From Vicinamibacterales bacterium (GTDB lineage: Bacteria > Acidobacteriota > Vicinamibacteria > Vicinamibacterales > UBA8438), in NCBI GenBank assembly GCA_965116845.1, contig OZ220728.1, forward strand, positions 2,630,044 to 2,694,043: a stretch of 64,000 nt of DNA. Direction: 5' to 3'. Position 1 is the stretch's first letter. Each line of letters opens with the position of its first letter. This document shows, piece after piece, positions 253 through 43,170 of this stretch. Both the position numbers and the translations under genes were made by a program. The notes beneath the pieces are model-generated. The model saw only the letters and a program-made list of their open reading frames with translations. It made no database searches and was not told the DNA's origin.

Positions 253-2712
253 ATGTCGTGGCCGTTCAAGGTGGCGGGCGGAGCGGTGCTCGCGGCGGCG
301 TTGTGCCTGACCCCGCACGCGAGCCATGCCCAGTCGGCGCCCGGTGCCGCCCCGCCGGGAGACTTCGTCGCACGGTACTGCGTTGCCTGCCACCACGACC
401 GCGGGTACGAGCGCGGCACGGTGCCGATCTCCCTGCAGGGCCTCGACCTCGAGGACGTCGGCGCCCACGCGGAGCTCTGGGAGGACGTGCTCCGAAAGGT
501 GCGGAGCGGCATGATGCCGCCGCCGGCGGCGCGGCGGCCCGATGACGCGGCCCGCGTCGCCTGGGTCGACTGGCTCGAGACGGAGCTCGACCGCGCGGCC
601 GACGCCCGTCCGTCGCGCGGCCGGCCGATGACGGTGCATCGCCTCAACCGCGTCGAGTACCGCAACGCGGTGCGGGATCTGCTGGGACTCGACGTGGACG
701 TCGAGGCCCTCCTGCCGCCGGACGACGCGGACGCCGAGGGCTTCGACAACAACGCGGAGGTCCTGTCGGTCTCGACCACGCTGATGGAGCGCTACCTGAC
801 GGCGGCGCGGCGGATCAGTCAGCTCGCGCTGGGCGACCCGCTCCTGGCCTCCCGGTCGCAGTCCTACCAGGTGCCGGAGCTGGAGGTGCAGGACGACCGC
901 ACGAGCGAGGACCTTCCGTTCGGGTCGCGAGGCGGTCTGGCCGCGCGTCACTACTTCCCGCTCGACGGCGAGTACCTCTTCAAGGTCGATCTGCGGCGCA
1001 ACTTCTACAACTACATCCGCGGCCTCGGGAACGTGCCGCACCAGCTCGACCTGCGGCTGGACAAGGCCCGGGTCCACACGTTCATGGTCGGCGGAGCGTT
1101 CGAGGGGGCGCGGTGCGCGACGAGCTACTGCGGCTCCGGTAGCGGCGGGTTCCCCGAGTGGGGCAACTACTCGGTCACCGCGGACGAGGGGCTGCAGTTC
1201 CGTATGCCGGTGCAGGCCGGCATGCGGCTGGTGGGCCTGGCGTTCCTCCGGCGGCCGGCTCTGGACGAAGGAGTGCTGCAGCCGCGGCCGAGCCCGGCGA
1301 CCTTCGGCTACAGCACCGACGATCGGCAGGACGGGAACCCGGCCGTGGCGAGGTTGACGGTTACGGGACCGCTGGTCGGCGAGACGCCGACGGAAACGCC
1401 GAGCCGGCGGCAGATCCTGGTCTGTCGGCCGGAGCACGCCGGCGAGGAAGCGGCGTGCGCGGAGCAGATTCTGAGCAACCTGGCCCGGCGCGCGTACCGC
1501 CGCCCGGTGACGCCCAGGGACGTGACGGCGCTCATGAGCTTCTACGAGGCGGGGCGGCAGGACGGCGGCTTCGAGACCGGGATTCAGGCGGGGCTGGAGT
1601 TCCTGCTGACCGATCCGGAGTTCGTGTTCCGCACGGAGCGCGCGCCGGTGGACGCCGAGCCGGGGATTGCCTATCCGGTGGGCGATCTCGAGCTCGCCTC
1701 GCGACTGTCGTTCTTCCTGTGGGGCAGCGTCCCCGACGACGAGCTGCTCGACGTGGCGGCGCAGGGGAGGTTGAACGAGCCCGCGGTGCTCGAGCGGCAG
1801 GTGCGCCGGATGCTGGCCCAGCCGCGCGCGCGAAGGATGCTGGTGGAGAGCTTCGCCGGCCAGTGGCTCGGGTTGCGCCGGCTCCGGAACGCATCGCCGG
1901 ACCCGACGGTGTTCCCCGAGTTCGACGAGAACCTGCGCGTCGCGATGGGCAGCGAGACACAGCTCTTCCTGGAGGCGCAGTTCCGCGACGACCGTCCCGT
2001 GTCGGAGTTGCTGACGGCCGACTACACCTTCGTGAATGACCGTCTGGCGGAGCATTACGGGATCCCCGGCATTCACGGTACCCATTTTCGTCGGGTGGAC
2101 CTTCCCGACGACCGGCGCGCCGGTCTGCTGGGGCAGGCGAGCGTCCTTACGCTCACCTCGTACGCGAACCGCACGTCACCGGTGACGCGGGGCAAGTGGG
2201 TGCTGGAGAGCCTGCTCGGAGCGCCGCCGGCGGAGCCGCCGGCCGACGTGCCGGATCTCAAGACCCGCGAGGAGGGTGAACCGCCCACGTCGGTGCGTGC
2301 GCTCATGGAGGTCCATCGGAGGAACCCGGCCTGCGCCACATGCCATCGGACGATGGATCCGCTGGGCTTCGCGCTGGAGAACTTCGACGGCATCGGGCGC
2401 TGGCGCGCGGCCGAGGATACGGGGATCCCGGGCGAGCTCGGGCCGGCCATCGATCCCTCCGGACTGGCCCCGGACGGCAGCCCGTTCGAGGGGGCCAGCG
2501 GCCTGCGTCAGATTCTGGCGCACGGAGAGGAGTTCACGTCGACGCTGACGGAGAGACTGCTGACCTATGCCACCGGGCGCCGCCTGGAGGCGGTCGACAT
2601 GCCGGCCGTCCGCCGGATCCAGCGGGAGGCGGCGGCCGGGGAGTCTCGCTGGTCGGCCCTGATTCTCGCCATCGTGAACAGCGAACCGTTTCAGACGAGG
2701 AGGATAGGCTGA
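253..2712 (+). CDS. Secreted DUF1592/DUF1588/DUF1585/DUF1587/DUF1595-family protein, paralog 1, two CxxCH motifs
   Basis: ORF 244..2712. ATG 253 lies 8 nt after GGGAGGG. Signal peptide present. CVACH near the N-terminus. C-terminal block NPACATCHRTMDPLGFALENFDGIGRWR. The TGA stop overlaps the next ATG (TGATG at 2710-2714). Confidence 0.85.
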   Translation: MSWPFKVAGGAVLAAALCLTPHASHAQSAPGAAPPGDFVARYCVACHHDRGYERGTVPISLQGLDLEDVGAHAELWEDVLRKVRSGMMPPPAARRPDDAARVAWVDWLETELDRAADARPSRGRPMTVHRLNRVEYRNAVRDLLGLDVDVEALLPPDDADAEGFDNNAEVLSVSTTLMERYLTAARRISQLALGDPLLASRSQSYQVPELEVQDDRTSEDLPFGSRGGLAARHYFPLDGEYLFKVDLRRNFYNYIRGLGNVPHQLDLRLDKARVHTFMVGGAFEGARCATSYCGSGSGGFPEWGNYSVTADEGLQFRMPVQAGMRLVGLAFLRRPALDEGVLQPRPSPATFGYSTDDRQDGNPAVARLTVTGPLVGETPTETPSRRQILVCRPEHAGEEAACAEQILSNLARRAYRRPVTPRDVTALMSFYEAGRQDGGFETGIQAGLEFLLTDPEFVFRTERAPVDAEPGIAYPVGDLELASRLSFFLWGSVPDDELLDVAAQGRLNEPAVLERQVRRMLAQPRARRMLVESFAGQWLGLRRLRNASPDPTVFPEFDENLRVAMGSETQLFLEAQFRDDRPVSELLTADYTFVNDRLAEHYGIPGIHGTHFRRVDLPDDRRAGLLGQASVLTLTSYANRTSPVTRGKWVLESLLGAPPAEPPADVPDLKTREEGEPPTSVRALMEVHRRNPACATCHRTMDPLGFALENFDGIGRWRAAEDTGIPGELGPAIDPSGLAPDGSPFEGASGLRQILAHGEEFTSTLTERLLTYATGRRLEAVDMPAVRRIQREAAAGESRWSALILAIVNSEPFQTRRIG

Positions 2713-4073
2713 TGATCGTCACCAAGAACGCGATCCCGCGTCGGACGATACTGCGTGGCGTGGGGACGGCGTTGGCCCTCCCGCTCCTCGACGGAATGGT
2801 GCCCGCGTTGACGGCCCTGGCCAAGACGCCGGCCGTGCCGACGAAACGACTCGGCGTGGTCGTCGTGCCGAACGGGGCTCCCGTCGAGTACTGGACGCCG
2901 AAGACCGCGGGCGCCGGGTTCGAGTTGACGCCGAGCCTCAAGGCGCTCGAGCCGGTTCGAGAGCATGTGGTCGTGATGTCCAACCTCGACAGCGTGGGCG
3001 CCGAGCCGGGCCGGGGCACCACCCATTCCCAGGCTGCGTCGGCGTTCCTGACCGGCGCCCGTCCGAGGCGCACGACCGGGGCCGCTCTGGAGCTCGGCAT
3101 CTCCATGGACCAGGTCGCCGCGAACGCGGAGGGGCTCGGCCGCGCGACGCAACTGCCGTCGCTGGAGCTGTCGCTCGAGGGCGGCGACACCGTCTACGGA
3201 GTGGCCACCTGCGACGGCGGCTTCAGTTGCGCCTATCTCAACAATTCCTGGGCCAATCCGTCGACGCCGATGCCGCGGGAGACGAATCCGCGCATCGTCT
3301 TCGAGCGGCTCTTCGGTGACGTCGGGAGCACCAGCGCCGAGGCGCGGCTCGGGCGCGCCCAGCGGCAACAGAGCATTCTCGACGCGGTGATGGACAAGGT
3401 CGCCCGGATGGAGAAGGGCCTTGCGCCCTACGACCGGCGCAAGCTCGACGAGTACCTCGAGGCCGTGCGGGGCATCGAGCGGCGCCTCCAGATGGCGGAG
3501 CAGCAGGCGGACCGGGAGCTGCCGGCGGTCGAGTCCCCGGCCGGGATTCCCCTGTCTTGGGAAGAGCACGCGAGGCTCATGTTCGACCTGATCGTGCTCG
3601 CCTATCAGACCGACATGACGCGCGTCATCTCGTTCATGGTCGGCCGCGAGGAGAGCGGCGCGACGTATCCGCAGATCGGCGTCACCGAGCCGCACCACCC
3701 GCTCAGCCACCACCGGGACAACCCGGAGAAGATCGAGAAGCTGGCGCGGATCAACGCCTACCACATGGTCCTGTTCAGCGATTTCCTGGCCAAGCTGCAC
3801 TCGACGCCGGACGGCGACGGCTCGCTGCTCGACCACGTCATGCTGATGTACGGCTCCGCGCTGCGCAACTCGAACCGGCATACGACCGAGGACCTGCCGA
3901 TCCTGGTGGCCGGCGGTGGCGGCGGGCAGATCCGCGGCGGGCGCCACGTGGTCAACCCCAAGGGCACGCCGCTGACCGATCTGCAGTACACGATGCTGCT
4001 GAAGCTGGGTGTCCCGGTGGAGAGTTTCAGCGGGAGCACGGACGCGATCCGCGAGATCTCCGAGCTCGCCTAG
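2712..4073 (+). CDS. DUF1552-family protein with twin-arginine signal, paralog 1
   Basis: In-frame ATG 2712 within ORF 2340..4073. N-terminus MIVTKNAIPRRTILRGVGTALALPLLDGM. Conserved CDGGFSCAY and EPHHPLSHH blocks are shared with the two other copies in the window. Confidence 0.85.
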   Translation: MIVTKNAIPRRTILRGVGTALALPLLDGMVPALTALAKTPAVPTKRLGVVVVPNGAPVEYWTPKTAGAGFELTPSLKALEPVREHVVVMSNLDSVGAEPGRGTTHSQAASAFLTGARPRRTTGAALELGISMDQVAANAEGLGRATQLPSLELSLEGGDTVYGVATCDGGFSCAYLNNSWANPSTPMPRETNPRIVFERLFGDVGSTSAEARLGRAQRQQSILDAVMDKVARMEKGLAPYDRRKLDEYLEAVRGIERRLQMAEQQADRELPAVESPAGIPLSWEEHARLMFDLIVLAYQTDMTRVISFMVGREESGATYPQIGVTEPHHPLSHHRDNPEKIEKLARINAYHMVLFSDFLAKLHSTPDGDGSLLDHVMLMYGSALRNSNRHTTEDLPILVAGGGGGQIRGGRHVVNPKGTPLTDLQYTMLLKLGVPVESFSGSTDAIREISELA

Positions 4074-4189
4074 AGGTTTGTGAACCTTGCGACCGGGGGC
4101 TGCCGTCCGCGCGAGGCGGCGGCCCTCGATCGTCCGACCTCGGAGGCGGCGGATCCCGGTCCGGGAGACGCTGCACGGGAGGAGCCGGT

Positions 4190-5656
4190 ATGCGGCTGAG
4201 CAGCAGCTCGATGGCTACGGCGGTGGCGGCGTGGCTCGCGTTCGCCGGCATCGCCGCCGGCAGCACGGACTTCCGACTGATCGAGGCGATCCGGGATCGC
4301 GATCACGAGGCCGTGCGCACGCTGCTGGCGCACGAGATCGACGTCAACGCCCGCGAGGGCGACGGTGCGACGGCGCTCCATTGGGCGGTCGTGCGGGACG
4401 ACGTCGAGGTGGTCGAGGCGCTCCTCGGGGCCGGCGCCGACGTGGACGCCGCGAACGACTACGGCGTGACGCCGCTCACGCTCGCCTGCACGAACCGCAA
4501 CGCGACGGTGGTCGGGAAGCTCCTCGGTGCGGGGGCGAACCCCGACGCGGCGACATCGATGGGTGAGACGCCCCTGATGACGTGTGCCCGGACCGGCGCC
4601 GCAGATGCGTTGGAAGCGCTGCTCGACCACGGTGTGAGCAACGTGGACGCCCGAGAGGAGTCGCACGGGCAGACGGCGCTGATGTGGGCGGCGGCCCAGG
4701 AGAACCCGGAGCTGGTGCGCTCGTTGCTGGCGCACGGCGCCGATTTCGGCGCGCGGTCGGACAGCCATCTGCTGCCGGTGAGCCTCGGCGACGGCAATGC
4801 CTTCGAGCAGTACTTCATGGAGCCGCAGCGCGGGTCGACGCCGCTGCTGTTCGCGGCACGAAACGGCCGCATCGAGAACGCCCGCCTGCTGCTCGCCGCG
4901 GGCGCCGACGTCAACGAGGCCGCGCCCAACGGGCAGTCGGCGCTCGTGATGGCCAGCCTCAGCGGCCAGGGGGCACTGGCCGCGTTCCTTCTGGAGCGGG
5001 GCGCGGACGCGAACGACGCCGCCGCCGGGTACGCGGCGCTGCACACCGCGGTGCTGCGCGGCGACTTGCAACTCGTCCAGGCGCTGTCCGCGCACGGAGC
5101 CGACCCGAACGCCGGTCTCGAGCGAGGGAGCCGGCAGCAGCGGAACCTGAACTGGTACGGCCTGTCCGGGGCGTTGGCCGGCGCGACGCCCTTCTGGCTG
5201 GCGGCCAAGTACGCGGAGGTCGAGATCATGCAGTTTCTCGCCTCCGCGGGCGCCGATCCGCTCCTGATGCCGCACAACGGGATCACGCCGCTGATGGCCG
5301 CCGCCGGTGCCGGCTGGACGACGAGGTCCAGCAACCGGCGCGATCAGGGCATCGGCGTGGACGCGGCCCGGCTCCTGGTGTCGGCGGGGGAGCGTGCGAC
5401 GCGGGAGGGCACGAGGCTGGCCCTCGAGCTCGGCAACGACGTCAATGCGACGGATCCCGCCGGCAACACGGCGCTGCACGCCGCGGTCCGGCTCGCCTAC
5501 TCGACCGTGGTCGACCTGCTGGTCGACCACGGCGGGGACCTGGACATCCGGAATGAGAACGGCAGGTCGGCCCGGGATCTGATGTGCCGCGATGCGGCCG
5601 GCGGTCTGGTCCGCCCGCTCGCCGGCGGCCGCTCCTGTCCGGGTTCCGCGCCGTAG
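4190..5656 (+). CDS. Signal-peptide ankyrin-repeat protein, paralog 1
   Basis: In-frame ATG 4190 (within ORF 3557..5656) is preceded by GGGAGGAG. Hydrophobic signal MATAVAAWLAFAGIAAG. Repeated G-TALHWA / TPL..A / LL..GAD ankyrin units. Confidence 0.85.
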   Translation: MRLSSSSMATAVAAWLAFAGIAAGSTDFRLIEAIRDRDHEAVRTLLAHEIDVNAREGDGATALHWAVVRDDVEVVEALLGAGADVDAANDYGVTPLTLACTNRNATVVGKLLGAGANPDAATSMGETPLMTCARTGAADALEALLDHGVSNVDAREESHGQTALMWAAAQENPELVRSLLAHGADFGARSDSHLLPVSLGDGNAFEQYFMEPQRGSTPLLFAARNGRIENARLLLAAGADVNEAAPNGQSALVMASLSGQGALAAFLLERGADANDAAAGYAALHTAVLRGDLQLVQALSAHGADPNAGLERGSRQQRNLNWYGLSGALAGATPFWLAAKYAEVEIMQFLASAGADPLLMPHNGITPLMAAAGAGWTTRSSNRRDQGIGVDAARLLVSAGERATREGTRLALELGNDVNATDPAGNTALHAAVRLAYSTVVDLLVDHGGDLDIRNENGRSARDLMCRDAAGGLVRPLAGGRSCPGSAP

Positions 5657-5782: not shown

Positions 5783-7180
5783 GTGCGCCGAACCAAGATC
5801 GTCGCTACCGTCGGACCGGCCAGTCAATCCGCGGACATCCTGGACGAACTGCTCGCGGCCGGTGTCGACGTCTTCCGCGTCAATTCCTCCCACGGCACGC
5901 GCGACGACCGGCGCGCCATGGTCGAGCGGATACGCGGCCGGGCATCGCGCGCCGGCCGCATCGTGGCCGTGTTGCAGGACCTGGCCGGTCCCAAGATCCG
6001 CATCGGACCCCTGATCGATCCGGCCGGCGTCGCGTTGGAGGTGGGTGCGCGCCTGCGGATCGCGGTCGGAGCCTTCGCGGGCGACGCCGCCCGGGTTTCG
6101 ACCTCCTGCGCTCCGCTCGCCGCGGCGGTGCGCGGGGGCGAGGCGCTGCTGCTCGACGACGGGGCGATCGGACTGCGCGTCATCGAGAGCGACGGCGCCG
6201 AGATCGTGACCGAGGTCGAGTTCGGCGGGCTGCTCACTGCCCGCAAGGGGATCAACGCACCCGGCGTCGAGTTGCCCCTGACCGCGTTGACGGACGCGGA
6301 CATCGAGGAGATCGAGGCCGCAGTCGCGACGGGGGTCGACTTCGTCGGCATCAGCTTCGTGCAAGGCGGCGACGACCTGCGGCTGGCGCGCTCCGCAGCG
6401 CGCCGGTGCGGTGGCGAGCGGGTGGGGTTGGTGGCGAAGATCGAGCGGCCGGCCGCGGTCGACGGCTTCGACGACATCCTGTCCGCAGCCGACGCGGTCA
6501 TGGTGGCGCGCGGCGACCTTGGCCTGGAGATTCCCCTCGAGCGGGTGCCGCGGGTCCAGAAGGATCTGACGCGCCGCGCCCGCGACGCCGGCGTCCCCCT
6601 CATCGTCGCCACGCAGGTGCTCGACACGATGCGGCATGCGCCGCGCCCGACGCGCGCGGAGGTGAGCGACGCGGCGAACGCCGTCGACGACGGGGTCGAC
6701 GCCATCATGCTCGCGGGAGAGACCGCGGTCGGCGCGCATCCGGTGCTCGCGGCGAGCACTCTCGACGCCATCCTGCGGGATGCCGAGTCGATGCAGCCTG
6801 ACCGCATCGTGCCTGGGGACATTGCGGAACGCCACGACCGGGCGCTCTGCGACGCCGCGGTGACGCTGGCCGCCACCGCCGGGGCCAGCGCCATCGTCGC
6901 GGTCACGCGCAGCGGGGCGACGGCGCGCCAGCTCGCCGCGCTGCGACCCCCGATTCCGATCTACGCGGTGACCTCGGACGCAGCCGTCGCCCGGCAACTG
7001 ACCCTGTGCCGGGGTGTTGCGCCGCTCGCCGTCGACACCGACGCCCTGGCCACCGCGGCCCTCAAGCCCGAGCTCGCCAGCCGCGGCGTCTTCCGGCCCG
7101 GCGACGCGGTCGTCTTCGCCCGCGTCCACTCCGATCTCGTCGCGTCGGACGCGAACTTCGTCGAGCTGCAGCAGTTCTGA
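5783..7180 (+). CDS. pyk: Pyruvate kinase
   Basis: N-terminus MRRTKIVATVGPAS...FRVNSSHGT, then LQDLAGPKIRIG, VMVARGDLGLEIP and MLAGETA motifs. GTG start. Confidence 0.92.
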   Translation: MRRTKIVATVGPASQSADILDELLAAGVDVFRVNSSHGTRDDRRAMVERIRGRASRAGRIVAVLQDLAGPKIRIGPLIDPAGVALEVGARLRIAVGAFAGDAARVSTSCAPLAAAVRGGEALLLDDGAIGLRVIESDGAEIVTEVEFGGLLTARKGINAPGVELPLTALTDADIEEIEAAVATGVDFVGISFVQGGDDLRLARSAARRCGGERVGLVAKIERPAAVDGFDDILSAADAVMVARGDLGLEIPLERVPRVQKDLTRRARDAGVPLIVATQVLDTMRHAPRPTRAEVSDAANAVDDGVDAIMLAGETAVGAHPVLAASTLDAILRDAESMQPDRIVPGDIAERHDRALCDAAVTLAATAGASAIVAVTRSGATARQLAALRPPIPIYAVTSDAAVARQLTLCRGVAPLAVDTDALATAALKPELASRGVFRPGDAVVFARVHSDLVASDANFVELQQF

Positions 7181-7309
7181 CGCCGGCCGCGGCGTGTCGG
7201 GGTGTGTTGGCGCCTGTCGGGCAGCGCTCGACCCGGGCAGCGCCCGACCCGGCCAAAGCCCCCGCGTGCCGGTCGCGGCACGTCTCGGCGCGGCGGGGCA
7301 GCCCGCGCG

Positions 7310-7963
7310 CTACGGCTCGGCATGGAGCGCGACCAGCCGCGCGCGCTCGCGGTCGGTGAGGGGCAGGAAGCCGGTCTCGTCGGCGGTCGCGGTGAGCGGC
7401 TGGCACGGCCCGCACATCAGGGTGTCCGACTGGTCGTTGTGGAGCAGGCCGAGCGCGTGGCCGAGCTCGTGCGCCACCACGTGGCGCGTGACCATCGCGT
7501 CGCTCCGATCCGGCTCCCGCACCCGGCGGATGACGACGAGGTAGCGCGGCGGGTCGACCCGCGGCAGCGGCCAGGCGTAGGACATGATGTCCTGCCGCGA
7601 CAGCAGCAGGACGACGTCGGCTCCGAAGCCGGCCAGCTCCGGCGGCGCGTCCGGCTCCGCCTCCCCGCCCGGGAGGCGCACGGCACGCTGGGCCACGCCG
7701 CGCGCGTAGTTCTCGAGGACGCGCGCGACCGGCGACGCCACTACGACCCGCGGTCCGGCGAGGCGCGTTGCGACGCCGAGCTCTGCCAGCCGCGCGTTCC
7801 AGAACGCGATGGCCTCGCGCGCGGGCTCGAGCCGGTCGTCGTCCGCCGCCGGCACGAGTACCACCACCGACCGCTCCGCCGCCCGGGGCGCGCCCGCGGC
7901 AGGCGGAGACAGGGCCGCGGCGAGCGCCAGCGCCGTCGCGACCCGTCCGGCCGCGCGGCGCAC
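7310..7963 (-). CDS. Secreted metzincin-like zinc metalloprotease
   Basis: HELGHALGLLH (HExxHxxGxxH) followed by a Met-turn-like LMCG. Signal-like RRAAGRVATALALAAAL. The GTG at 7963 overlaps the upstream TAG by 1 nt. The ORF 7310..8542 extension overlaps the upstream gene and is rejected. Confidence 0.75.
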   Translation of the reverse strand: MRRAAGRVATALALAAALSPPAAGAPRAAERSVVVLVPAADDDRLEPAREAIAFWNARLAELGVATRLAGPRVVVASPVARVLENYARGVAQRAVRLPGGEAEPDAPPELAGFGADVVLLLSRQDIMSYAWPLPRVDPPRYLVVIRRVREPDRSDAMVTRHVVAHELGHALGLLHNDQSDTLMCGPCQPLTATADETGFLPLTDRERARLVALHAEP

Positions 7964-9021
7964 TACGCGCCCGTCCGCCGGAGGATGATCCAGTGCGGGC
8001 ACTTCGCGGTGTCCGCGTAGAGGCGCTCGCAGTCGTCGCACCGGACGCACTCGGTCATGTCGATGCGCGGGCCCTGGATGGCGCCCCACTCGCATGCCTT
8101 CTCGCAGATCTTGCACGAGTTGCACTCGGACCAGCGCTTGATGCGGAAGACGGTCAGCTTCGAGAGCAGGCCCAGGGCCGCGCCGACCGGGCAGAGGAAG
8201 CGGCAGTAGAGGTTGCGGACGAAGACGGTTGCGACGAGCAGCGCGGCGAGGCCGACCCAGAGGGCCGGGGTGCTGCGCAGGGTGAACATCCAGAACGGCT
8301 CCACGTAGCGGTAGGCGGCGATGTCCGAGGAGGCGAAGAAGTAGAGCAACGTGGCGCCGAGGAGGAAGTACTTGATCCGGGCTGCCCGGTGCTCGAGCCA
8401 CGGCGGCACCTCGAGCCGGAGCCGGGCGGGAACCACGCGGTCGAGGAGCTGGGTCAGCGCGCCGTAGGCGCACACGCGGCCACAGTACAGGCGGCCCCAC
8501 AGGATCGTCGTGACCACCGTGAAGCCGGCGAACAGATACCACGCCAGGCTGTAGCGGAAGACGGGCAGGTTGCCGGTAGCCGCGCTGTAGAGGTTCACTA
8601 CCGAGATCAACTGGCTCTTGTAGAACCCCAGGTAGGCCACCGCGGCCACGAGCGTGACGTACTTCAGTGGAACGCTCTTGCGGTGGAAGCTGACGAGGGC
8701 CAGCGTCGCGAACGCCGCGAACAGCCCGAGGTCGAGCCCCTGATCCCGGAGCAGCGTGCCCCAGGTCTCGACCTCCTCCTCGTCCTCGAAGTCCCAGAAG
8801 TCGTCCGCCAGCGCCTCGCCGGCAGGCTGCACGGCGCTCGCCAAGCTCGACCCGGCCGCCGGTTCCGTCGAAGTCGCCCCGACGGGGAACGCCGCCGCGC
8901 AGGCGAGCAGCAGGGCGGAAAGGCTGCGTCGCAGAACGGAGCGGACGCCGAGAAGCTCGGTCGGGCGGCCGGCGGAACCGTCCGGTGACGAGGGTCGGTC
9001 CAGCCCGGCGCGCCGCGTCAC
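7963..9021 (-). CDS. NapH/NosR-C-terminal-like polytopic membrane 4Fe-4S protein
   Basis: Multiple TM segments. CX3C(P) motifs LYCGRVCAYGA and LYCRFLCPVGA. Ferredoxin-type CNSCKICEKAC and CVRCDDCERL...CP. ATGA overlap with the upstream gene. Confidence 0.8.
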   Translation of the reverse strand: MTRRAGLDRPSSPDGSAGRPTELLGVRSVLRRSLSALLLACAAAFPVGATSTEPAAGSSLASAVQPAGEALADDFWDFEDEEEVETWGTLLRDQGLDLGLFAAFATLALVSFHRKSVPLKYVTLVAAVAYLGFYKSQLISVVNLYSAATGNLPVFRYSLAWYLFAGFTVVTTILWGRLYCGRVCAYGALTQLLDRVVPARLRLEVPPWLEHRAARIKYFLLGATLLYFFASSDIAAYRYVEPFWMFTLRSTPALWVGLAALLVATVFVRNLYCRFLCPVGAALGLLSKLTVFRIKRWSECNSCKICEKACEWGAIQGPRIDMTECVRCDDCERLYADTAKCPHWIILRRTGA

Positions 9022-10417: not shown

Positions 10418-11905
10418 CTAGCGCGTCTCCACGGGCACGTCGGGAGCGTCGCCGGTGCGCGACCCCGGCGTCGCAGGTTCCCGTCCGGGCGCCGGTAGAC
10501 GTACCAGTTCGCCGTTGCGGAGCGCGAAGCGGACCGCCACGTCCTCCTCGCGGGGCGGGACCAGCCGTGCGACCTGCCAGTCGACGGGCGGCGGCTCGAT
10601 CCAGACAGGCTGCCGCTTGCCCGTCCGGACGAAGACGGCGGACTCGACCAGGGTGCCGAAGGCGGCATCGAGGTTCGTTCGCTCCTGCCGGTCGTCGTCG
10701 AGGCGGATGACGCGACCCGCCGGCAGCGCCTCGACCACCGGTGCGAGCCGATCCAGCACGTGGGTCGAGAGCCGCGCCCAAGCCACCCACTCGTCGTGCC
10801 TCGCCCAGTGGACGGGCACCGCGAGCGCCAGCAGGACCGCGCCGGCCAGCACCGCCCGGCACCGGGCCGCCCGGCCGACGCGGTCCCAGACGGAGGTGAG
10901 GAGGGCCGCCGCGGCCAGGGCCGCGCCGGCCGACGGTTCGATGGGGTACAGGCTCGAGCGGACCGGCAGGAACACGGCGACCGCGTAGCCGCCGACGAAC
11001 CAGACCGCTCCCATCAGCGCCCAGCGGCGCTGCTCGGAACTGGGCCGGGGTGCCGCCCACGCGGTGACGCCCAGGACGAGCACGAAGCCCATCGAGAGCG
11101 TCGCGCCGCGGTCGAGGTAGGACAGGGCGTTTGCCGCGACCGACCCCGCGTCGAGCACGAAGCGGTAGGCGGCTGGCGCGTCGAACGGGGTCATCGCTCC
11201 GGCCGCGGTCCGCGCCGCGAGGTAGAGCGCCAGCGACACGAAGGGCGGCCAGGAGCTCCGGAGCGCGCGCCGAGCGGCGAAGCGCGGCGTTTCTTCGCTG
11301 CCGTTCGCCATCCACAGCCCGGCCCAGACCAAGAGGACGAAGGGCAGCAGCACCGCGTCCTCCTTCGAGAGCATTGCGACGAGCGCCCAACCCGCCGCCG
11401 CGCGCGGCCGGCCGAGGACGAGGGAGCGCGCCGCGAGGAGGCTGAACAGCGTGGCCAGCAGCGACGTCCGGCCGCTGATCCAGAGCAGCGACATGTCGAT
11501 GCCGTGGAAGTTGAACGCCCAGAGCCCTGCGGCGAGGAGGGCGGCGCCGCGCGGCATCCCGAGTGCGAGCGCGAGGGCCCGCAGGGCCATGGCGCCCGCG
11601 GCCAGGATGGCCAGGTTCGTGAGCCCGTAGGCCAGCGGCTCGATGCCGAAGAGCCACCAGTCGGCGGCGAAGGTGAGGCGGACCACCGGCCGGTAGAAGT
11701 CGGCCGTGCCGGTGAACAGCCCCGCCAGCTCGCCGGCGCTGGTCACCTGGTTCGACGCGATCCAGGCGAAATCGTCCTTGATGAAGCCGCGGCCGAGGCC
11801 GGGGAGGTAGGTGAGCAGGAAGACCGCCGTGATCTCCACCGCGGCCCGCCACTCGGGCCAGACGCGGTCCTCGACGGCCTTCATCGCGAGCTGGGTCCAG
11901 GACAT
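10418..11905 (-). CDS. GT-C fold (PMT_2/TMTC-like) membrane glycosyltransferase
   Basis: Polytopic. First-loop FIKDDFAWI (DD motif), then FYRPVVRLTFAADWWLFGIEPLAYGLTNL, as in the N-terminal modules of TMTC/PMT_2-type enzymes. Confidence 0.7.
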   Translation of the reverse strand: MSWTQLAMKAVEDRVWPEWRAAVEITAVFLLTYLPGLGRGFIKDDFAWIASNQVTSAGELAGLFTGTADFYRPVVRLTFAADWWLFGIEPLAYGLTNLAILAAGAMALRALALALGMPRGAALLAAGLWAFNFHGIDMSLLWISGRTSLLATLFSLLAARSLVLGRPRAAAGWALVAMLSKEDAVLLPFVLLVWAGLWMANGSEETPRFAARRALRSSWPPFVSLALYLAARTAAGAMTPFDAPAAYRFVLDAGSVAANALSYLDRGATLSMGFVLVLGVTAWAAPRPSSEQRRWALMGAVWFVGGYAVAVFLPVRSSLYPIEPSAGAALAAAALLTSVWDRVGRAARCRAVLAGAVLLALAVPVHWARHDEWVAWARLSTHVLDRLAPVVEALPAGRVIRLDDDRQERTNLDAAFGTLVESAVFVRTGKRQPVWIEPPPVDWQVARLVPPREEDVAVRFALRNGELVRLPAPGREPATPGSRTGDAPDVPVETR

Positions 11906-11986: not shown

Positions 11987-13327
11987 CTACACCTCGGTGA
12001 ATCGGCCCGTGCTGTCGCCGATGCTCTCGCGGTGGACGTCCACCTTGTCGAGGATCGACAGCAGCAGGTTGGTCATCGGCGTGCCTGCGTCGGCCACCAC
12101 GTGGCGCCCGCACTGTGTCCGCCCGCCGGCGCCGCCCGCCACGAGGACCGGCAGCCGCGTGTGCGTGTGCAGGTTGCCGTTGCTGATGCAGCCGCCGTAC
12201 AGCAGCGTCGCGTGGTCGAGCAGCGTGCCGTCGCCGTCCGGCGTCGACCGCAGCTTGTCGAGGAAATAGCTGAACAGGCTGACGTGGTAGGTGTTGATCT
12301 TCGCGTGCTTCGCCACCTTGTCCGGCGCGTTCCCGTGGTGCGAGATGGCGTGGTGCGGGTCGGGAACACCGATGTGGCTGTAGGTGCGGGTCGACGCCTC
12401 GCGCGCGAGCATGAAGGTGCTGATGCGCGTGATGTCGGCCTGGAACGCGAGCGCCTGCAGGTCGTACATCAGCTTGACGTGATCGTCGTAGAGCTCCGGC
12501 ACGCCGATCGGCATGTCGGGCAGCTCGATGTGCTCGCCGGCCCGCGCCTCCACCTTGCGGACGCGCTGCTCGACGTCGCGAACGCTGTCGAGGTACTCGG
12601 TGACGCGCGCCGTGTCGGCCGCCCCGAGCCGCTTCCGCAGCCGTCCCACCTCGCCGACGATGGCGTCGAGGATGCTCCGGTCCTGGCCGAGCTGCCGCCG
12701 GCGCTCCTCGGCGCCGAGGCCCTCGCCGAACAGCCGCTCGAAGATGACGCGCGGGTCGGTCTGCATCGGCAGCGGCGTCGTCGGCGTGCGCCACGACAGC
12801 GTGTTGACGTAGCTGCAGGAGTAGCCGATGTCGCAGCCGCCGACCGCGCTGAAGTCCTCGGCCGCAACCTCGAGCGACGGGAGCTCGGTGTCGCGGCCCA
12901 ACTCGTCGGCGGCGATCTGGTCGATCGTCTTCGCGCCTCGGACGTCGGCTCCCTCCGTCCGCTTCGGGTGCACGCCGGTCAGCCAGACCGCGCTCGCCCG
13001 CGCGTGGTCGCCGGAACCCTCGCCCTCGGCTGCCTCCGACGGGCGCGAGTCGAGACCGGACACCACGACGAGCCGATCCCGGTGCTGCTCCAGCGACGCC
13101 AGGATGGGAGGCAGGTCGAAGTCCGTCCCCTCGGCCGCCGGCGTCCACTGGTCCATGATGGCGCCGTTCGGGATGTAGGAGAACGCGAGCCGGCGTACCG
13201 GGGCGGCCGCGGTGCGGGACATCGCCGAGAGCGCGGGGACCATCGCGTCCAGCAGCGGCAACGCGACCGTCGCGCCGACACCGCGCAGGAACGTCCGCCG
13301 AGGCAACGCCATCTTCGTGATGATCAT
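11987..13327 (-). CDS. DUF1552-family protein with twin-arginine signal, paralog 2
   Basis: ATG 13327 is preceded by GGAGGGAG. MIITKMALPRRTFLRGVGATVALPLLDAM. CDIGYSCSY and DPHHAISHH blocks. Confidence 0.85.
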   Translation of the reverse strand: MIITKMALPRRTFLRGVGATVALPLLDAMVPALSAMSRTAAAPVRRLAFSYIPNGAIMDQWTPAAEGTDFDLPPILASLEQHRDRLVVVSGLDSRPSEAAEGEGSGDHARASAVWLTGVHPKRTEGADVRGAKTIDQIAADELGRDTELPSLEVAAEDFSAVGGCDIGYSCSYVNTLSWRTPTTPLPMQTDPRVIFERLFGEGLGAEERRRQLGQDRSILDAIVGEVGRLRKRLGAADTARVTEYLDSVRDVEQRVRKVEARAGEHIELPDMPIGVPELYDDHVKLMYDLQALAFQADITRISTFMLAREASTRTYSHIGVPDPHHAISHHGNAPDKVAKHAKINTYHVSLFSYFLDKLRSTPDGDGTLLDHATLLYGGCISNGNLHTHTRLPVLVAGGAGGRTQCGRHVVADAGTPMTNLLLSILDKVDVHRESIGDSTGRFTEV

Positions 13328-13374: not shown

Positions 13375-15879
13375 TTACTGCCCGGCCGCCACGACTCCGG
13401 CCGGCGCATCCGCCGCCGGCCGCTTCAACTTCATCCGGAACGCGTCGCTCGACACGACGGCGTCGACGATGGCCGAGAACCGGTAGTCCTCCGCGGCCGC
13501 CGCGCGGACGATGCGGCGGACCGCCGGTGCGTCGTAGTACTCCATGCCGCGTCCGACGGCGTAGGTCAGCAGCTTCCGCGTGAACGTCTCCAGGAACGAG
13601 TCCGGCCGGCGCAGGATGGCTTCCCGGAGCTCGCTCGGGCCGTTGAATGCGGTGCCGTCGGGCAGCACGTCGGAGGCGTCAATCGGCTCGCCGCCGGGGC
13701 CGTCGCTGCGCCAGCGCCCGATGGCGTCGAAGTTCTCCAGGCCGAAGCCGTACGGATCCATCCGGGCGTGGCACGTGGCGCATGCCGGATTCGCGCGGTG
13801 CTGCTCCAGGCGCTCCCGAATCGAGAGGCCCTCGGCGCTGCCGGCGTCCTCCAGGTCCGGCACGTCCGGCGGCGGCGGCGGCGGCGGCGACCCGAGAAGG
13901 TTCTCGAGAATCCACTTTCCGCGCAGGACCGGCGACGTGCGGGTGGCGTACGACGTGACCGTCAACAGGCTGCCGTGGCCGAGGATTCCGCGCCGCGCCT
14001 CGTCCGTCACCGCCACGCGGCGGAACCGGTCGCCGTAGATGCCGGAGATGCCGTAGTGGCGCGCCAGACGCTCGTTGAGGAACGTGTAGTCGGCGGTCAG
14101 CAGATCGAGGATGCTCCGGTCCTCGGCCATGATGCTCTCGAAGAAGAGCTGGGTCTCCCGCAGCAGCGCGCGCCGCAGGTTGTCGTCGAAGTCGGGGAAC
14201 GTCGGCGGGTCCGGATTCGTGGTGGCGAGATTCCGCAGGTAGAGCCACTGCCCGGCGAAGTTCTCGACCAGCGCCGACGCGCGCGGGTCGGCCAGCATGC
14301 GCCGCACCTGCCGCTGCAGCTCATCCGGCGCGCTCAGCTCGCCCCGCTCCGCGACCGAGAGCAACTCGTCGTCCGGAATGGTGCTCCAGAGGAAGAACGA
14401 GATCCGCGAGGCGAGGTCGAGGTCCGACACCGGATAGACGGCGCCGGCTGCGAGGTCCTGCGGTTCGCTCTCCAGCCGGAAGAGGAACTGGGGGCTGGCG
14501 AGCATGAACCGCAGGGCGAGCTCGATACCCGACTCGAAACCGCCGTCACGATTCCCTTCCTCGTAGAACGCCAGGAGCCGGTCGATCTCCGGCGCCTCGA
14601 GCGGGCGGCGGTAGGCCAGCCGGCCCAGGCGGGTGAGGATGGAGCGGGCGCACGGCTCCGCGCTCCCGGGCGCCTCGGGGCGGCACGTGAAGATGCGTTG
14701 CCGGCTCGGGGTGTCGTCGGGGCGTGTCGGGTCGAACGGGCCCGCGATGAGTACGCTGTCGACGTCCGGCAGCCCCCGCCGGCTGTTCGACGAGACGTAG
14801 CTCCGCAGGAACGGCTTGCGAGTCTCTTCCGACAGCGCGGCCGGCTTGCCGACGAACGCGGCGACGATCTCGTGGGGGCCGGCCGGCAACTGCAGCCTCA
14901 CCCGCATTCCCTCGTCGGCCGTGAACGCCTTGCTGACGGTCTGCCCGGGGTTCTGCTCGTTCACCACGAGCGCCTGGTACGCGTCCTCGCTGCCGATCGG
15001 GAACAGTGCGATCCGTCGGCCGTCGAGGGTCAGCTCCAGGTTGTGCTCCTCCCCGATGCCCCGGATGGTGCCCACCGCGGTTCGCCGCAGCCGCACGCGG
15101 ATCTCGTACTCCGCGTCGACCGGGAAGTACTCGGTGATGCGGATGCCGCCGCGGGTGCCGAGCGGAAGCTCGCGCAGGTGGTAGTCCTGCGTGAGGTCCT
15201 CGGGCGTCTTGTAGGTCGTCGTCACGGTCGGGATGACGGGGCTCCCGACGGCGAGACGGCTGATCTTCCGCGCGGTCGTGACGTAGCTCTCGAGGAGCAG
15301 GGGCGAGACGCCGAGCGCGTCCGCGATGTTGTCGAAGCCGAACGTCGAGTCGTCCGCCGGGAGCGCGCTCACGTCCGCCTCGAGGGCCAGCAGGTCGCGT
15401 ATGGCGTTGCGATACTCCGCGCGGTTCATCCGGTGGAGTTGCGGCCGCCCGGGGTTCGGGGCAGCGTCGGCGGCGCGGTCGAGCGACGTCTCCAGCCAGG
15501 ACGCGAAGGCGCGGTACGCATCGTCGTCCGGCCGTGGGCGCCGTGGCGGGGGCATGGTCCGGCTCCGAAGCTTCTGGACCACCTTCTCCCAGAGCTCCGC
15601 GTCGGCCGCGACGTGTGCCTCGCTGACTTCCACGTCATCGAGCGTCAGCCCCGCCGTGCGCAGCCGGCTGTTGTGGCAGGCGACGCAGTAGCGCTGGAGC
15701 AGCGCGCCGTGCTCGGCGCCCGCGGCCGGCGCGCCCGCGGCCGATTCGGCGACCGCCACGGGTGCCGGCGCGGTAGCGACCGCCGGTCCCTGCGCCGCGG
15801 CGGTGCCGGCGAGCAGACCGGTGGCGATTCCCGCCAGCACGAAACTACCGACAAGCCCGGCGTGCCCTCTGGTCTCCAT
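13375..15879 (-). CDS. Secreted DUF1592-family protein, paralog 2, two CxxCH motifs
   Basis: ATG 15879 is preceded by GGAGG. Signal peptide, CVACH, C-terminal NPACATCHARMDPYGFGLENFDAIGRWR. The ORF-track extension to 17202 overlaps the ankyrin gene and is rejected. Confidence 0.85.
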   Translation of the reverse strand: METRGHAGLVGSFVLAGIATGLLAGTAAAQGPAVATAPAPVAVAESAAGAPAAGAEHGALLQRYCVACHNSRLRTAGLTLDDVEVSEAHVAADAELWEKVVQKLRSRTMPPPRRPRPDDDAYRAFASWLETSLDRAADAAPNPGRPQLHRMNRAEYRNAIRDLLALEADVSALPADDSTFGFDNIADALGVSPLLLESYVTTARKISRLAVGSPVIPTVTTTYKTPEDLTQDYHLRELPLGTRGGIRITEYFPVDAEYEIRVRLRRTAVGTIRGIGEEHNLELTLDGRRIALFPIGSEDAYQALVVNEQNPGQTVSKAFTADEGMRVRLQLPAGPHEIVAAFVGKPAALSEETRKPFLRSYVSSNSRRGLPDVDSVLIAGPFDPTRPDDTPSRQRIFTCRPEAPGSAEPCARSILTRLGRLAYRRPLEAPEIDRLLAFYEEGNRDGGFESGIELALRFMLASPQFLFRLESEPQDLAAGAVYPVSDLDLASRISFFLWSTIPDDELLSVAERGELSAPDELQRQVRRMLADPRASALVENFAGQWLYLRNLATTNPDPPTFPDFDDNLRRALLRETQLFFESIMAEDRSILDLLTADYTFLNERLARHYGISGIYGDRFRRVAVTDEARRGILGHGSLLTVTSYATRTSPVLRGKWILENLLGSPPPPPPPDVPDLEDAGSAEGLSIRERLEQHRANPACATCHARMDPYGFGLENFDAIGRWRSDGPGGEPIDASDVLPDGTAFNGPSELREAILRRPDSFLETFTRKLLTYAVGRGMEYYDAPAVRRIVRAAAAEDYRFSAIVDAVVSSDAFRMKLKRPAADAPAGVVAAGQ

Positions 15880-15971: not shown

Positions 15972-17495
15972 TCAGCGCTGGTCGGCAGGGACCGTCCTGC
16001 CGTCCGGGGTCGCCACGGCGCCGAGGCTGCGGAGCAGCGCCGCCGCCTTGTCCCGCCGGATCACGCTGGCGATCTGGTTGAAGCCCTGCTCGGCGAGGTC
16101 CAGGGCGCTCCGGTCCAGCTCGTCCTCGAAGTCCGTGCGGGCGCCAGCCTCGACGAGGCGCCCGATGATGCGGTTGGCGGCCCGGTAGACGGCCCCGTGC
16201 AGCGCCGTCTGGCCGTTGGCGTTGCTCGCGTTGACGTCGACGCCCGCGGCCAGGGCCAGCTCGACCGCAGCGAGCGCGTCCTCCTCGGGGCGGAAGCGGC
16301 GCGAGCCCTCGATGTGGCCGATGCCCGCCGCCATCATGACCGCCGTGTTGTTCGCGTAGGTCGCCAGCCGCGGGTCGGCCCCGAGCGCGGTCAGCTCGCG
16401 CATCGCCTCGACGTCGGCGCCCTGCGCGGCGAGGACGTACGGGGTTGCGCCGCCCAGGTTGACGCCGTTGTCCATGTACGGCCGCCCGGCGCTGAAGATG
16501 CTCTCGTCGGTCCAGCGCTCGTGGCGAATCGGGGTCGGCTCGGTCCGGGCGTTCGGGTCGGCGCCGCGGGCCACGAGCATCCGCATCAGCTCCAGGCTGT
16601 CGAGCTGTGTCGGGTCGGCGCCATAGGAGTCGACGAACTGGTTCGCGAGGTTGCGCTGCGGCGCGCGGCGCTGCACCAGGTTGTGCAGGATGCTGTTGCC
16701 CCGCGGGTCGCGCGCGTCGGCGTCGGCGCCCGCGTCGAGCAGGATCGCGGCCATCGTGTAGTGGCCGTTGGTTACCGCCATGCTCAGCAGGCTGCCGCGG
16801 CTGACCGCGCGCGCGGCGTTCGGGTTGGCGGGCGGGAGCTCCGCGTTCACGTCGGCGCCCGCCGCGAGGAGGAGCCGGGCGGCGTCGCGCGCGTCCTGCC
16901 GGACCGCGAACATGAGTGCGTTGAAGCCGCCGGCCGACGGTGCATCGACGGTCGCGCCGCGCTCGAGCAGCACGTTCATGATTCGGGCGTGGTTCTCGGC
17001 TGCCGCCCACATGAGGGGGGTCTGCCCGCGCCACGTATCGGCGGCGTCGACGCTCGCCCCGTACGCGAGGAGAGCTCGGACCGCGGCGACGCGGCCGGTG
17101 CGCGCACAGCCGAGGATCGGCGGCTCGCCGTTCGGCGCCAGACCGGGGTCGGCGCCGGCTTCGAGCAACCGCTCCATCAGAGCCGGGTTGGCGTTCGTGC
17201 ACGCCAGGGTGAGCGGCGTGGCGCCGTTCCGGTTCACCGCGTTCGGGTCCGCACCGGCGCCGAGCAGCAGCGTGGCCAGATCGACGTCGTCGGCATAGGC
17301 CGCCCAGTGCAGCGCCGTAGTGCCGTCAATCCCGGGGGAGTCGACGTCGACGTCGCTGGCGAGCAGGCTCGCAACGCCCGCTCGATCGCCGGAGCGCGCC
17401 AGTTCCGGCAGGCGAGCGTCACGTTCGGCGGCCGCGAGCAGGCCTCCGGTCACGAAGAGCAGAATCAGCGACGCAAGGCATCGTCGGTGCAGCAT
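15972..17495 (-). CDS. Signal-peptide ankyrin-repeat protein, paralog 2
   Basis: MLHRRCLASLILLFVTGGLLAAA signal. Ankyrin units (GTTALHWAAY, GATPLTLAC, GQTPLMWAA). Clearly alignable by eye over its full length to the 20861..22366 product. Confidence 0.88.
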   Translation of the reverse strand: MLHRRCLASLILLFVTGGLLAAAERDARLPELARSGDRAGVASLLASDVDVDSPGIDGTTALHWAAYADDVDLATLLLGAGADPNAVNRNGATPLTLACTNANPALMERLLEAGADPGLAPNGEPPILGCARTGRVAAVRALLAYGASVDAADTWRGQTPLMWAAAENHARIMNVLLERGATVDAPSAGGFNALMFAVRQDARDAARLLLAAGADVNAELPPANPNAARAVSRGSLLSMAVTNGHYTMAAILLDAGADADARDPRGNSILHNLVQRRAPQRNLANQFVDSYGADPTQLDSLELMRMLVARGADPNARTEPTPIRHERWTDESIFSAGRPYMDNGVNLGGATPYVLAAQGADVEAMRELTALGADPRLATYANNTAVMMAAGIGHIEGSRRFRPEEDALAAVELALAAGVDVNASNANGQTALHGAVYRAANRIIGRLVEAGARTDFEDELDRSALDLAEQGFNQIASVIRRDKAAALLRSLGAVATPDGRTVPADQR

Positions 17496-31177: not shown

Positions 31178-31249
31178 CGCCCCAGCGGCGCTCTCACCTG
31201 ACGCCCCGGCGGCGCATCTCACCCGCGCCCCGGTGGTGCTTCTCAGAGG
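31178..31249. repeat. 3 x 24-nt imperfect tandem repeat CGCCCCRGYGGYGC(N)TCTCA
   Basis: Units at 31178-31201, 31202-31225 and 31226-31249. The third unit contains the stop codon (31243-31245) of the DUF1552 gene on the minus strand. Confidence 0.6.
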
Positions 31250-38748: not shown

Positions 38749-39008
38749 CAGCGGTTTCCTCCAGTCTCGGGAACGCCGGATCCTAGCCGGAAACCGTCGC
38801 CCGCGGCTCCGATTCCCCCAGCCACGCTGCCAGGAGCCTCGCGCCATTCTACGGGTCGCAGACTCCTGGCAGGCCCCGTCGTCCTGTCAGGCCGCGTGTT
38901 CTTTGGCGGCGTTGCCAACACGGAGCCACCACGGCGAAACCGCTGGCGCCGAGCCGCCCCGGCGTGGCAGGATCCCTCGGGATGCTGTCGCGCGACCGCC
39001 CGGAAGCG

Positions 39009-41626: not shown

Positions 41627-41678
41627 TCGGGTCCGCCACAACGCACGACACTTCCAAGTCCGGGAGGAGCCCTCGATC

Positions 41679-42080: not shown

Positions 42081-42136
42081 CCGGCACACGGAGTGACCAG
42101 CCATACGGAGTGGCAGGACAAGAGGAGCGTTCAAGG

Positions 42137-43159: not shown

Positions 43160-43170
43160 GGACGGCGCGG

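Follow-up and report, generated by a model that had tools for sequence, protein, structure and literature searches.

Bacteria of several phyla encode side by side two proteins with export signals, one carrying the DUF1552 (HXXSHH) domain and the other a series of PSCyt and PSD domains with cytochrome motifs. This combination of DUF1552 and a cytochrome partner ranks among the larger systems of environmental bacteria that have no assigned function, with several to many copies per genome in Acidobacteriota, Verrucomicrobiota and Planctomycetota. The PSCyt and PSD domains were defined by Studholme et al. 2004. In freshwater Verrucomicrobia, the DUF1552–PSCyt3 pairing has been reported, with no function given, in up to 17 copies per genome; sulfatase genes neighbour the PSCyt genes there, and PSCyt gene density has been linked with oxic layers of water as well as with carbohydrate and sulfatase neighbourhoods (He et al. 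2017, PMC5615132). A comparable arrangement exists in the DUF1501 plus PSCyt1/PSCyt2/PSD1 modules of Planctomycetes and Verrucomicrobia, for which an electron-transfer role has been proposed (Kamneva et al. 2012, PMC3542564). Here, we analyze three DUF1552–PSCyt3 gene pairs in a stretch of 64,000 nucleotides (hereafter the window) from a Vicinamibacterales bacterium (Acidobacteriota; assembly GCA_965116845.1, contig OZ220728.1, positions 2,630,044 to 2,694,043). We see about an even chance that the two products of each pair form a periplasmic redox enzyme with haem and metal, built on a remodelled sulfatase scaffold, with a secreted ankyrin protein as a lineage-specific accessory.

The window copies share with the Verrucomicrobia pairs (PMC5615132) the same domain architecture, large-then-small gene order, twin-arginine translocation (Tat) signal, HxxSHH motif, two CxxCH motifs and multiple paralogues. 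They differ in residing in Acidobacteriota (Vicinamibacterales) and in the addition, in 72 of the 83 modules sampled below, of a third gene encoding an ankyrin protein of ~490 amino acids (aa). The DUF1501 modules likewise place a Tat-signal protein beside a large multidomain CxxCH protein, often with carbohydrate-binding modules (CBMs), and are massively paralogous; however, both partners in the window belong to other Pfam families, and no DUF1501 or PSCyt2 gene is present in it. The pair is of a known but uncharacterized kind, and the pairing itself is not new. The initial annotation of this DNA had stated that neither family has an assigned function, and this agrees with the full-text literature searched under the DUF and PSCyt names, which yielded no functional study and no mention of an ankyrin partner, and with the absence of any NCBIfam match to either subunit. 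What is added here is a sulfatase-like predicted fold for DUF1552, a histidine placed at the formylglycine position, and the ankyrin as a regular third gene in this lineage; the three-gene form with an ankyrin, as seen in Acidobacteriota, seems to be a variant not described before. The window alone does not reveal the function.

The G+C content of the window is 70–74%, which makes raw lists of open reading frames (ORFs) noisy, and genes were therefore called by codon-position G+C. The three pairs and the junction of the first are as follows; residue numbers for copy 1 count from the start at 253, and a start at 244 would add 3.

253 to 2712, plus strand: copy 1 large subunit, 819 aa (Pfam, AlphaFold model, Foldseek, motif invariance)
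2712 to 4073, plus strand: copy 1 small subunit, 453 aa, HXXSHH/DUF1552 with twin-arginine signal (Pfam E 4e-95, AlphaFold model)
2710 to 2714, plus strand: TGATG stop/start overlap of 1 nt at the copy 1 large/small junction
13375 to 15879, minus strand: copy 2 large subunit, 834 aa (Pfam)
11987 to 13327, minus strand: copy 2 small subunit, 446 aa (Pfam)
32595 to 35057, minus strand: copy 3 large subunit, 820 aa (Pfam)
31243 to 32598, minus strand: copy 3 small subunit, 451 aa, without an adjacent ankyrin (Pfam)

All three large proteins match PSD3, PSD5, PSD4, PSCyt3 and PSD2 in that order (equivalent to DUF1587, DUF1595, DUF1592, DUF1588 and DUF1585; E 1e-19 to 1e-49), every match far over its gathering score. 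All three small proteins match HXXSHH/DUF1552 (PF07586) at E 4e-95 to 5e-98, with 319–329 bits against a cut-off of 30. Family hidden Markov models (HMMs) run over the whole window recover exactly three pairs but four ankyrin paralogues. The initial annotation had placed the pairs at 253–4073 (plus), 15879–11987 (minus) and 35057–31243 (minus) and assigned them to the DUF1592-type and DUF1552 families; coordinates, families and motifs all check out. The motifs comprise the NP(A/V)CA(T/S)CH...IGRWR block, the RR signal, CD.G(F/Y)SC(A/S)Y, (E/D)PHH..SHH and two CxxCH per large protein (residues 43 and 694 in copy 1, 65 and 700 in copy 2, 44 and 701 in copy 3). The coupled junctions that it described for copies 1 and 3 were likewise found, as TGATG and as a 4-nt ATGA overlap, respectively; the large and small genes of copy 2 lie 47 nt apart.

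Linkage of the two genes extends well beyond this genome. The small-subunit alignment was scanned against one genome per GTDB species, and the best 80 loci were kept, drawn from Vicinamibacterales, Bryobacterales, other Acidobacteriota, Longimicrobiales, Verrucomicrobiota, a Pseudohongiella and an Acidimicrobiia bin; six-frame ORFs of these loci were searched with HMMs built from our own alignments. A large gene lies directly upstream on the same strand for 83/83 small genes, bearing out the co-localization in other genomes that had been predicted, and the 4-nt ATGA overlap recurs in 60 of these 83 pairs. A second sample consisted of seven Verrucomicrobiota loci, reached via a distant representative 34% identical to copy 1. 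The large-then-small pair is kept in five of them, and the other two hold orphan DUF1552 genes. In one of these, Roseimicrobium gellanilyticum (locus L083), the orphan at 7001–8341 (plus) has no PSCyt3 partner and is divergent to a gene at 6286–6744 (minus) for a cupredoxin (152 aa, Copper-bind), which is another kind of periplasmic electron carrier. This hints that the redox partner is exchangeable. Cultured carriers of the minimal pair are Rubritalea squalenifaciens and Fontisphaera persica.

The pairs are also old and, in close relatives, transcribed. The nearest relatives are metagenome-assembled genomes of Vicinamibacterales (Acidobacteriota). Copy 1 has orthologues at 80–87% identity in other Vicinamibacterales genomes, with the same downstream ankyrin retained, and copy 3 has one orthologue (82%) in another such genome, whereas the paralogues within the window are only 49–51% (large) and 47–53% (small) identical pairwise. 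The duplications are therefore older than the divergence of these genomes, as the initial annotation had proposed in calling the copies old paralogues. Public runs with window sequence include marine and sponge metagenomes and metatranscriptomes, and contigs from marine and sponge metatranscriptomes cover both copy 1 genes at 90–99% identity. Some span the copy 1 stop/start overlap, among them X25 (2690–3009), X26 (2679–3107) and X27 (2543–2951), which indicates that close relatives are transcribed and that both genes lie on a shared transcript, with the proviso that the evidence comes from assembled contigs, not from reads, and that carried-over DNA may be included.

The large subunit has the features of a c-type cytochrome. 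A Sec-type signal peptide is visible in all three copies, and the AlphaFold model of copy 1 (pLDDT 84, pTM 0.86) places residues 35–118 in a small helical domain with C43xxC46H47 and M88-P-P in a class-I-like cytochrome c layout. The two haem-attachment motifs of copy 1 are:

379 to 393, plus strand: haem-attachment motif 1, CVACH, residues 43–47, predicted partner Met88 in MPP (84/84 large subunits)
2332 to 2346, plus strand: haem-attachment motif 2, CATCH, residues 694–698, inside PSCyt3 (84/84)

Among 84 large subunits, five from Verrucomicrobiota included, C43, C46, H47, M88, C694, C697, H698 and H688 are 100% conserved, and M520 is 96% conserved. Matches of the N-terminal domain to known cytochromes are weak: copy 2 reaches PSCyt1 at 28.7 bits (cut-off 22), and copies 1 and 3 reach Cytochrome_CBB3 at 20.2 and 26.5 bits (cut-off 27). 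The N-terminal profile weakly matches cytochrome c551 (2zon_G, E 0.16), with CxxCH and MPP in register; beyond this, the large subunit compared with PDB sequences, singly and as a profile, gave nothing significant. A beta-sandwich occupies residues ~200–377 of copy 1, and its only PDB matches in Foldseek are CBM35, CBM36, CBM6 and C1q-type jelly rolls. The same region is assigned to CBM60 by Pfam in two Verrucomicrobiota orthologues (Rubritalea L081, 4611–6986, a weak match, and L088, 3671–5962, not weak), and it is absent from the 644-aa large subunit of Fontisphaera persica (L082, 4899–6833). The beta-sandwich is an optional CBM-like module of the large subunit. The helical remainder at 380–819 (PSD5–PSD4–PSCyt3–PSD2) has no solved relative, and a whole-chain Foldseek search matched the beta-sandwich alone.

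The small subunit resembles sulfatases and their relatives in its predicted fold. An AlphaFold2 model of copy 1, built from a 70-sequence alignment (pLDDT 76, pTM 0.80), was compared with the PDB by Foldseek, and the top 43 of the 50 matches listed all belong to the alkaline-phosphatase superfamily. At the top stand steroid sulfatase, arylsulfatase A and LtaP (E 3e-5 to 3e-4), the best match having E 2.8e-5 at a probability of 1.0; LtaS, sulfamidase, phosphonate monoester hydrolase, YejM, NPPs, PhnA and PlcH/N are also matched. A long helical hairpin is inserted at residues 209–264 of the model, as in steroid sulfatase. At the level of sequence, a Pfam scan of the 70 aligned small subunits at E <= 10 gave no Sulfatase (PF00884), Phosphodiest, Metalloenzyme or DUF1501 match, and comparison with PDB sequences, singly and as a profile, gave nothing significant and no sulfatase. 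Sequence searches do not recover the relationship, and the superfamily link thus rests on the predicted fold.

As a check of collinearity, the small-subunit alignment was compared by hhalign in local mode with the two sulfatases encoded in the flanks of L063 and L064; the probability was 0.1, which is not significant. In this forced alignment, VVPNG falls on LVDD, HSQAASAFLTG on CSPTRAAVMTG, HHP near the sulfatase HxP, and TDLQYTMLLKLGVP on VDCLPTILEATGV, the latter being the sulfatase DxxPTxLxxxGV motif; PNG falls on the metal-ligand DD and GSA on SDN. The likeness to type I sulfatases and the wider superfamily would thus comprise the same predicted alpha/beta core and, in that non-significant alignment, a collinear first strand, a nucleophile helix ending in LTG, an HxP-like HHP and (D/T)xxxTxLxxxGV. 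In contrast to sulfatases, DUF1552 has no C/S-x-P-x-R motif, its metal-binding Asp residues appear to be largely replaced, and it possesses an extra HHxxSHH cluster, the long helical hairpin and a cytochrome partner. With the sulfatase signature spaced as C-x-P-x-R-x4-T-G, the invariant His105 would occupy the formylglycine (nucleophile) position, with the Pro and Arg of the motif absent. With the nucleophile and the Arg of CxPxR missing and most of the acidic metal ligands apparently lost as well, DUF1552 is not a sulfatase; from the model, it is best described as a predicted, remodelled member of the alkaline-phosphatase/sulfatase fold with a putative His-rich pocket. The histidines in question in copy 1 are:

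3024 to 3026, plus strand: His105, HSQAASAFLTG versus CxPxRxxxxTG (kept in 85/85 close relatives and 125/128 diverse representatives)
3693 to 3713, plus strand: HHPLSHH cluster, residues 328–334 (H329 and H333 each in 125/128 diverse representatives)

Conservation in the small subunit favors an active site made of histidines. In 85 close relatives, R46, H105, D133, Q134, C167, C173, W180, R194, D301, R304, E313, H329, H333, D374 and H390 are invariant. A diverse set of 128 full-length representatives at 33–54% identity retains R11, P24, R46, G55, H105, D133, Q134, A137, S150, P186, P193, S221, L223, D224, D241, E256, A297, T303, R304, H329 and H333 at 95% or more, with H390 at 93%, H334 at 89%, H328 at 82% and H412 at 73%. 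The HxxSHH motif reads HHPLSHH, HHAISHH and HHALSHH in copies 1, 2 and 3, respectively. All three copies also have a twin-arginine signal RRT(I/F/V)LRG, and RR is found in 85/85 close relatives. Residues 1–36 (2712–2820), which include this signal, are conserved far beyond usual signal peptides in all relatives, with the consensus MIxTKxxxPRRTxLRGxGxxLALPLLDxMVPA and an Asp or Glu within the hydrophobic stretch; the genome scan used the two best-conserved stretches, of which ALPLLD(G/A/S)MV is one. The Tat region may stay uncleaved as an anchor or may serve as a docking element.

Together, these features outline a possible mechanism. The small subunit, with its alkaline-phosphatase/sulfatase alpha/beta core, would be exported folded via Tat; His105 would replace the formylglycine, Ser or Thr nucleophile and Asn54 the first metal-binding Asp, while a His-ligated metal site would be formed by H329, H333 and H390, together with H328, H334 and H412. 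The large subunit would be Sec-exported and matured as a dihaem c-type cytochrome, with haem 1 in the class-I-like domain under His/Met ligation and haem 2 in the PSCyt3 helical domain, and would pass electrons between the small subunit and the cytochrome/dehydrogenase pool of the periplasm. The optional CBM-like beta-sandwich might bind a glycan-like substrate, and the stop/start overlap would let both subunits be made in stoichiometric amounts. The ~490-aa secreted ankyrin solenoid of the Acidobacteriota-centred clade would serve as a third, accessory component, either as a scaffold or as an assembly or haem-handling factor. The motif pattern alone had led the initial annotation to propose a haem-plus-metal two-subunit enzyme, and the predicted sulfatase/alkaline-phosphatase fold with its His-rich remodelled site makes that proposal plausible. 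Moreover, a Tat-exported catalytic subunit with a Sec-exported c-type cytochrome subunit is how SorAB, NapAB and similar periplasmic oxidoreductases are typically organized. The export logic, the adjacent coupled genes and, as proposed here, the mono- or dihaem cytochrome relay are the same, a likeness of organization only; unlike the SorAB and NapAB catalytic subunits, DUF1552 has no molybdopterin domain, with HXXSHH the only Pfam match and an alkaline-phosphatase-like predicted fold. Were a sulfatase fold indeed rebuilt around histidines and wired to haems, it would be the first redox member of the alkaline-phosphatase superfamily and would provide a mechanistic frame for much of the uncharacterized periplasmic protein content of heterotrophs from soil, the sea and sponges. 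The residues singled out by this proposal are H105, H329, H333 and H390 in the small subunit and C43/C46/H47/M88 and C694/C697/H698 in the large one.

A bolder version is possible, with our judgment leaning clearly against it: the pair may represent a new metalloenzyme class in which a His-ligated redox metal (copper or iron, for example), fed by a dihaem glycan-binding donor, oxidizes possibly sulfated or phosphorylated glycans, with the ankyrin obligatory in Acidobacteriota. By analogy, this would be a bacterial counterpart of the logic by which electrons pass from a dehydrogenase through a cytochrome to a lytic polysaccharide monooxygenase (LPMO). Comparable proteins are Cbp2D and Cbp2E of Cellvibrio japonicus, which have CBM and c-type cytochrome domains and are proposed LPMO electron donors (Branch et al. 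2021, PMC8981238). Cbp2D shares DUF1587/PSD3, CxxCH cytochrome domains and a carbohydrate-binding module with the large subunit; it differs in having YceI-like and FN3 domains, in lacking PSCyt3 and PSD4, in having no reported DUF1552 partner, and in being extracellular rather than periplasmic. A Cellvibrio DUF1592 protein with a CBM2 was additionally found in a study of a lignocellulose-degrading community.

Several points weigh against assigning a redox function to the pair. We know of no alkaline-phosphatase superfamily member that is a redox enzyme; characterized members are hydrolases, transferases, mutases or non-catalytic (YejM), and Tat export also occurs in the non-redox phosphoesterases PhoD, PhoX and PlcH. 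The TM-scores of the Foldseek matches are modest (0.34–0.43, at ~10% identity), and neither HMMER nor HH comparison gave a significant match to sulfatases, so that the residue-level mapping is inferred; the pocket of conserved histidines is a prediction from sequence conservation. Furthermore, the two of seven Verrucomicrobiota DUF1552 genes that have no large partner imply that the small protein can work without it, and the context of the three pairs in the window offers no substrate clue, their neighbours being pyruvate kinase, a membrane protein, tetratricopeptide repeat (TPR) proteins and S-adenosylmethionine decarboxylase.

The main rival explanation, which we regard as unlikely, is that DUF1552 is a non-redox hydrolase or transferase acting on phospho-, sulfo- or phosphono-esters through a His nucleophile or His-bound Zn or Fe. 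The large protein would in that case be a substrate-binding or regulatory partner, and its haems would be structural or redox-sensing. Such an enzyme fits the fold history: the fold matches are all hydrolases or transferases, the sulfatase-like C-terminal motif and the LTG helix appear to be retained, the large subunit has a CBM-like module, and sulfatases both neighbour PSCyt genes (PMC5615132) and flank the L063 and L064 modules. It does not fit the strictly conserved haem motifs: two CxxCH and a distal Met that stay invariant from phylum to phylum are not easily accounted for unless electrons are transferred. Moreover, there is no canonical Cys/Ser/Thr nucleophile and no CxPxR Arg, most of the Ca/Zn-binding Asp residues appear to be lost, and a cupredoxin gene adjoins the orphan DUF1552 gene.

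Dihaem partners can also act in maturation. In the MauG/MADH system a dihaem protein matures a protein-derived cofactor, and QHNDH has a dihaem subunit. A similar arrangement here, in which the large subunit would mature a cofactor formed from C167, C173, Y175 and W180 or remain as the redox partner of a quinohaemoprotein-type dehydrogenase, strikes us as improbable. In its favor, C167, C173 and W180 are invariant and Y175 is kept in 84/85 of the close relatives, Y175 and W180 persist in 91% and 94% of the diverse set, and the loop at 160–172 of the copy 1 small subunit has low pLDDT, as expected of a modified or interface segment. However, the Cys pair is present in only 72% of diverse representatives and cannot be a universal catalytic element, and neither sequence nor fold comparison links the large subunit to MauG or CcpA. 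The Cys pair was rejected on this count as a family-wide catalytic element; of the motifs that the initial annotation had expected to be conserved in orthologues, the CxxCH and His motifs are kept and the Cys pair is the one that is not.

A non-catalytic periplasmic complex (a sensor, a structural assembly or a pure electron conduit), with the fold serving as a binding scaffold as in YejM/PbgA, is just as improbable: YejM periplasmic domains are among the Foldseek matches, canonical catalytic residues are lost and the ankyrin partner suggests protein–protein scaffolding, but R46, H105, D133, Q134, S150, R304, H329, H333 and H390 are at least 93% conserved down to 33% identity in an active-site-like manner, and the 25,126 clusters of DUF1552 at 50% identity found by profile search, the three copies in 35 kb and the up to 17 copies per genome (PMC5615132) resemble substrate-diversified enzymes.

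For the two-subunit redox enzyme, the gene neighbourhoods supply a few electron-transfer leads. By phmmer, 15 of the 80 loci have a pyrroloquinoline quinone (PQQ) dehydrogenase homologue no more than 8 kb from the module, and the window has none. A PQQ dehydrogenase is directly in tandem with the divergent ankyrin only in L022, L027 and L029 (~1350–3630, minus strand; PF01011, E 7e-180 in L027), and a supposed 19-locus cluster of this kind was rejected accordingly; the proximity of the dehydrogenase remains a lead. The cupredoxin, PQQ dehydrogenase and Cbp2D leads agree with an electron-relay role, none of them strongly.

The proposed accessory, the ankyrin protein, is represented four times in the window:

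4190 to 5656, plus strand: copy 1 secreted ankyrin, 488 aa, ~11–12 repeats, downstream of pair 1 (Pfam)
15972 to 17495, minus strand: copy 2 secreted ankyrin, 507 aa, upstream of pair 2 (Pfam)
20861 to 22351, minus strand: third ankyrin paralogue, beside no pair; 496 aa, sharing 64% identity with the ankyrin of copy 2
38982 to 40403, plus strand: fourth ankyrin paralogue, 473 aa, among many periplasmic redox genes

All four match Ank_2 (E 1e-48 to 1e-61) and are 36–64% identical to one another; the signal-peptide ankyrins noted earlier beside copies 1 and 2 are both present, with N-terminal hydrophobic signals. Of the 72 full-length ankyrin paralogues directly adjacent to a module in the 80 loci, 33 follow it, 18 precede it on the same strand and 21 lie upstream in divergent orientation; 5 of the 11 modules without one lie on truncated contigs. 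No ankyrin was seen at the seven Verrucomicrobiota loci sampled, and the ankyrin as a universal third subunit was therefore rejected: it is a near-constant third gene of an Acidobacteriota-centred clade, lineage-specific and not general. An alignment of 78 ankyrins (the 4 of the window and 74 from the loci) describes a solenoid of ~11–12 repeats with an N-terminal signal, in which only repeat-framework residues are conserved. No conserved His, Cys or Met stands out in it, and nothing points to catalysis or haem ligation.

Small ankyrins are associated with haem enzymes elsewhere, and AnkB of Pseudomonas aeruginosa is linked to such an enzyme, a catalase. In Campylobacter jejuni, the small ankyrin Cj1386 is reported to traffic haem to the catalase KatA (Flint et al. 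2012, PMC3256678). The likeness to the window pairs, a functional analogy drawn from the literature, is that the ankyrin gene stands beside a gene for a haem enzyme (in the window, a predicted one); the catalases need the ankyrin for full activity. Cj1386 and AnkB are much smaller and accompany catalases, whereas the ankyrins of the window type are ~11–12-repeat solenoids. The third ankyrin gene of the window (20861–22351) lies directly downstream of 24904–22484 (minus), which encodes a protein of ~700–800 aa with no Pfam match, a single CxxCH (CQLCH) and a carboxypeptidase-regulatory-like N-terminus. The family of this protein recurs in 8 of the 80 loci, and in L046 (8738–11623) a homologue sits between the DUF1552 gene and the ankyrin. 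Because ankyrins stand beside this CxxCH family as well, their association with periplasmic haem proteins seems to be a broader one.

The fourth ankyrin gene is closely followed, at 41033–43593 (plus), by a series of genes of periplasmic redox type:

41033 to 41626, plus strand: Tat-signal cupin
41679 to 42080, plus strand: small CxxCH protein
42179 to 43159, plus strand: YNCE/cytochrome-D1-like beta-propeller
43186 to 43593, plus strand: class I cytochrome c

Other genes near the pairs are less readily classified. The ORF at 10418–11905 (minus) begins 81 nt past the end of the small gene of copy 2, on the same strand, and may share a transcript with that pair; it encodes a polytopic membrane protein of 495 aa that lacks a Pfam match and is not an ankyrin. 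At 24807–26987 (plus), a secreted protein of 726 aa has an N-terminal CVSCH (weak Cytochrome_CBB3) fused to a long TPR region, and a second TPR protein lies at 29829–31151. The ORF at 58056–59048 (plus) opens with a low-complexity run of Val, Ile, Ala, Pro and Ser, has a weak coding score and may not be a real gene. Finally, L073 encodes at 867–2444 (minus) a secreted protein of ~470 aa without a Pfam match, with an N-terminal CQNCH...MPP and C-terminal HHY and HMHFRG motifs, and proteins of this type recur near the module in seven loci, L073 and six others.

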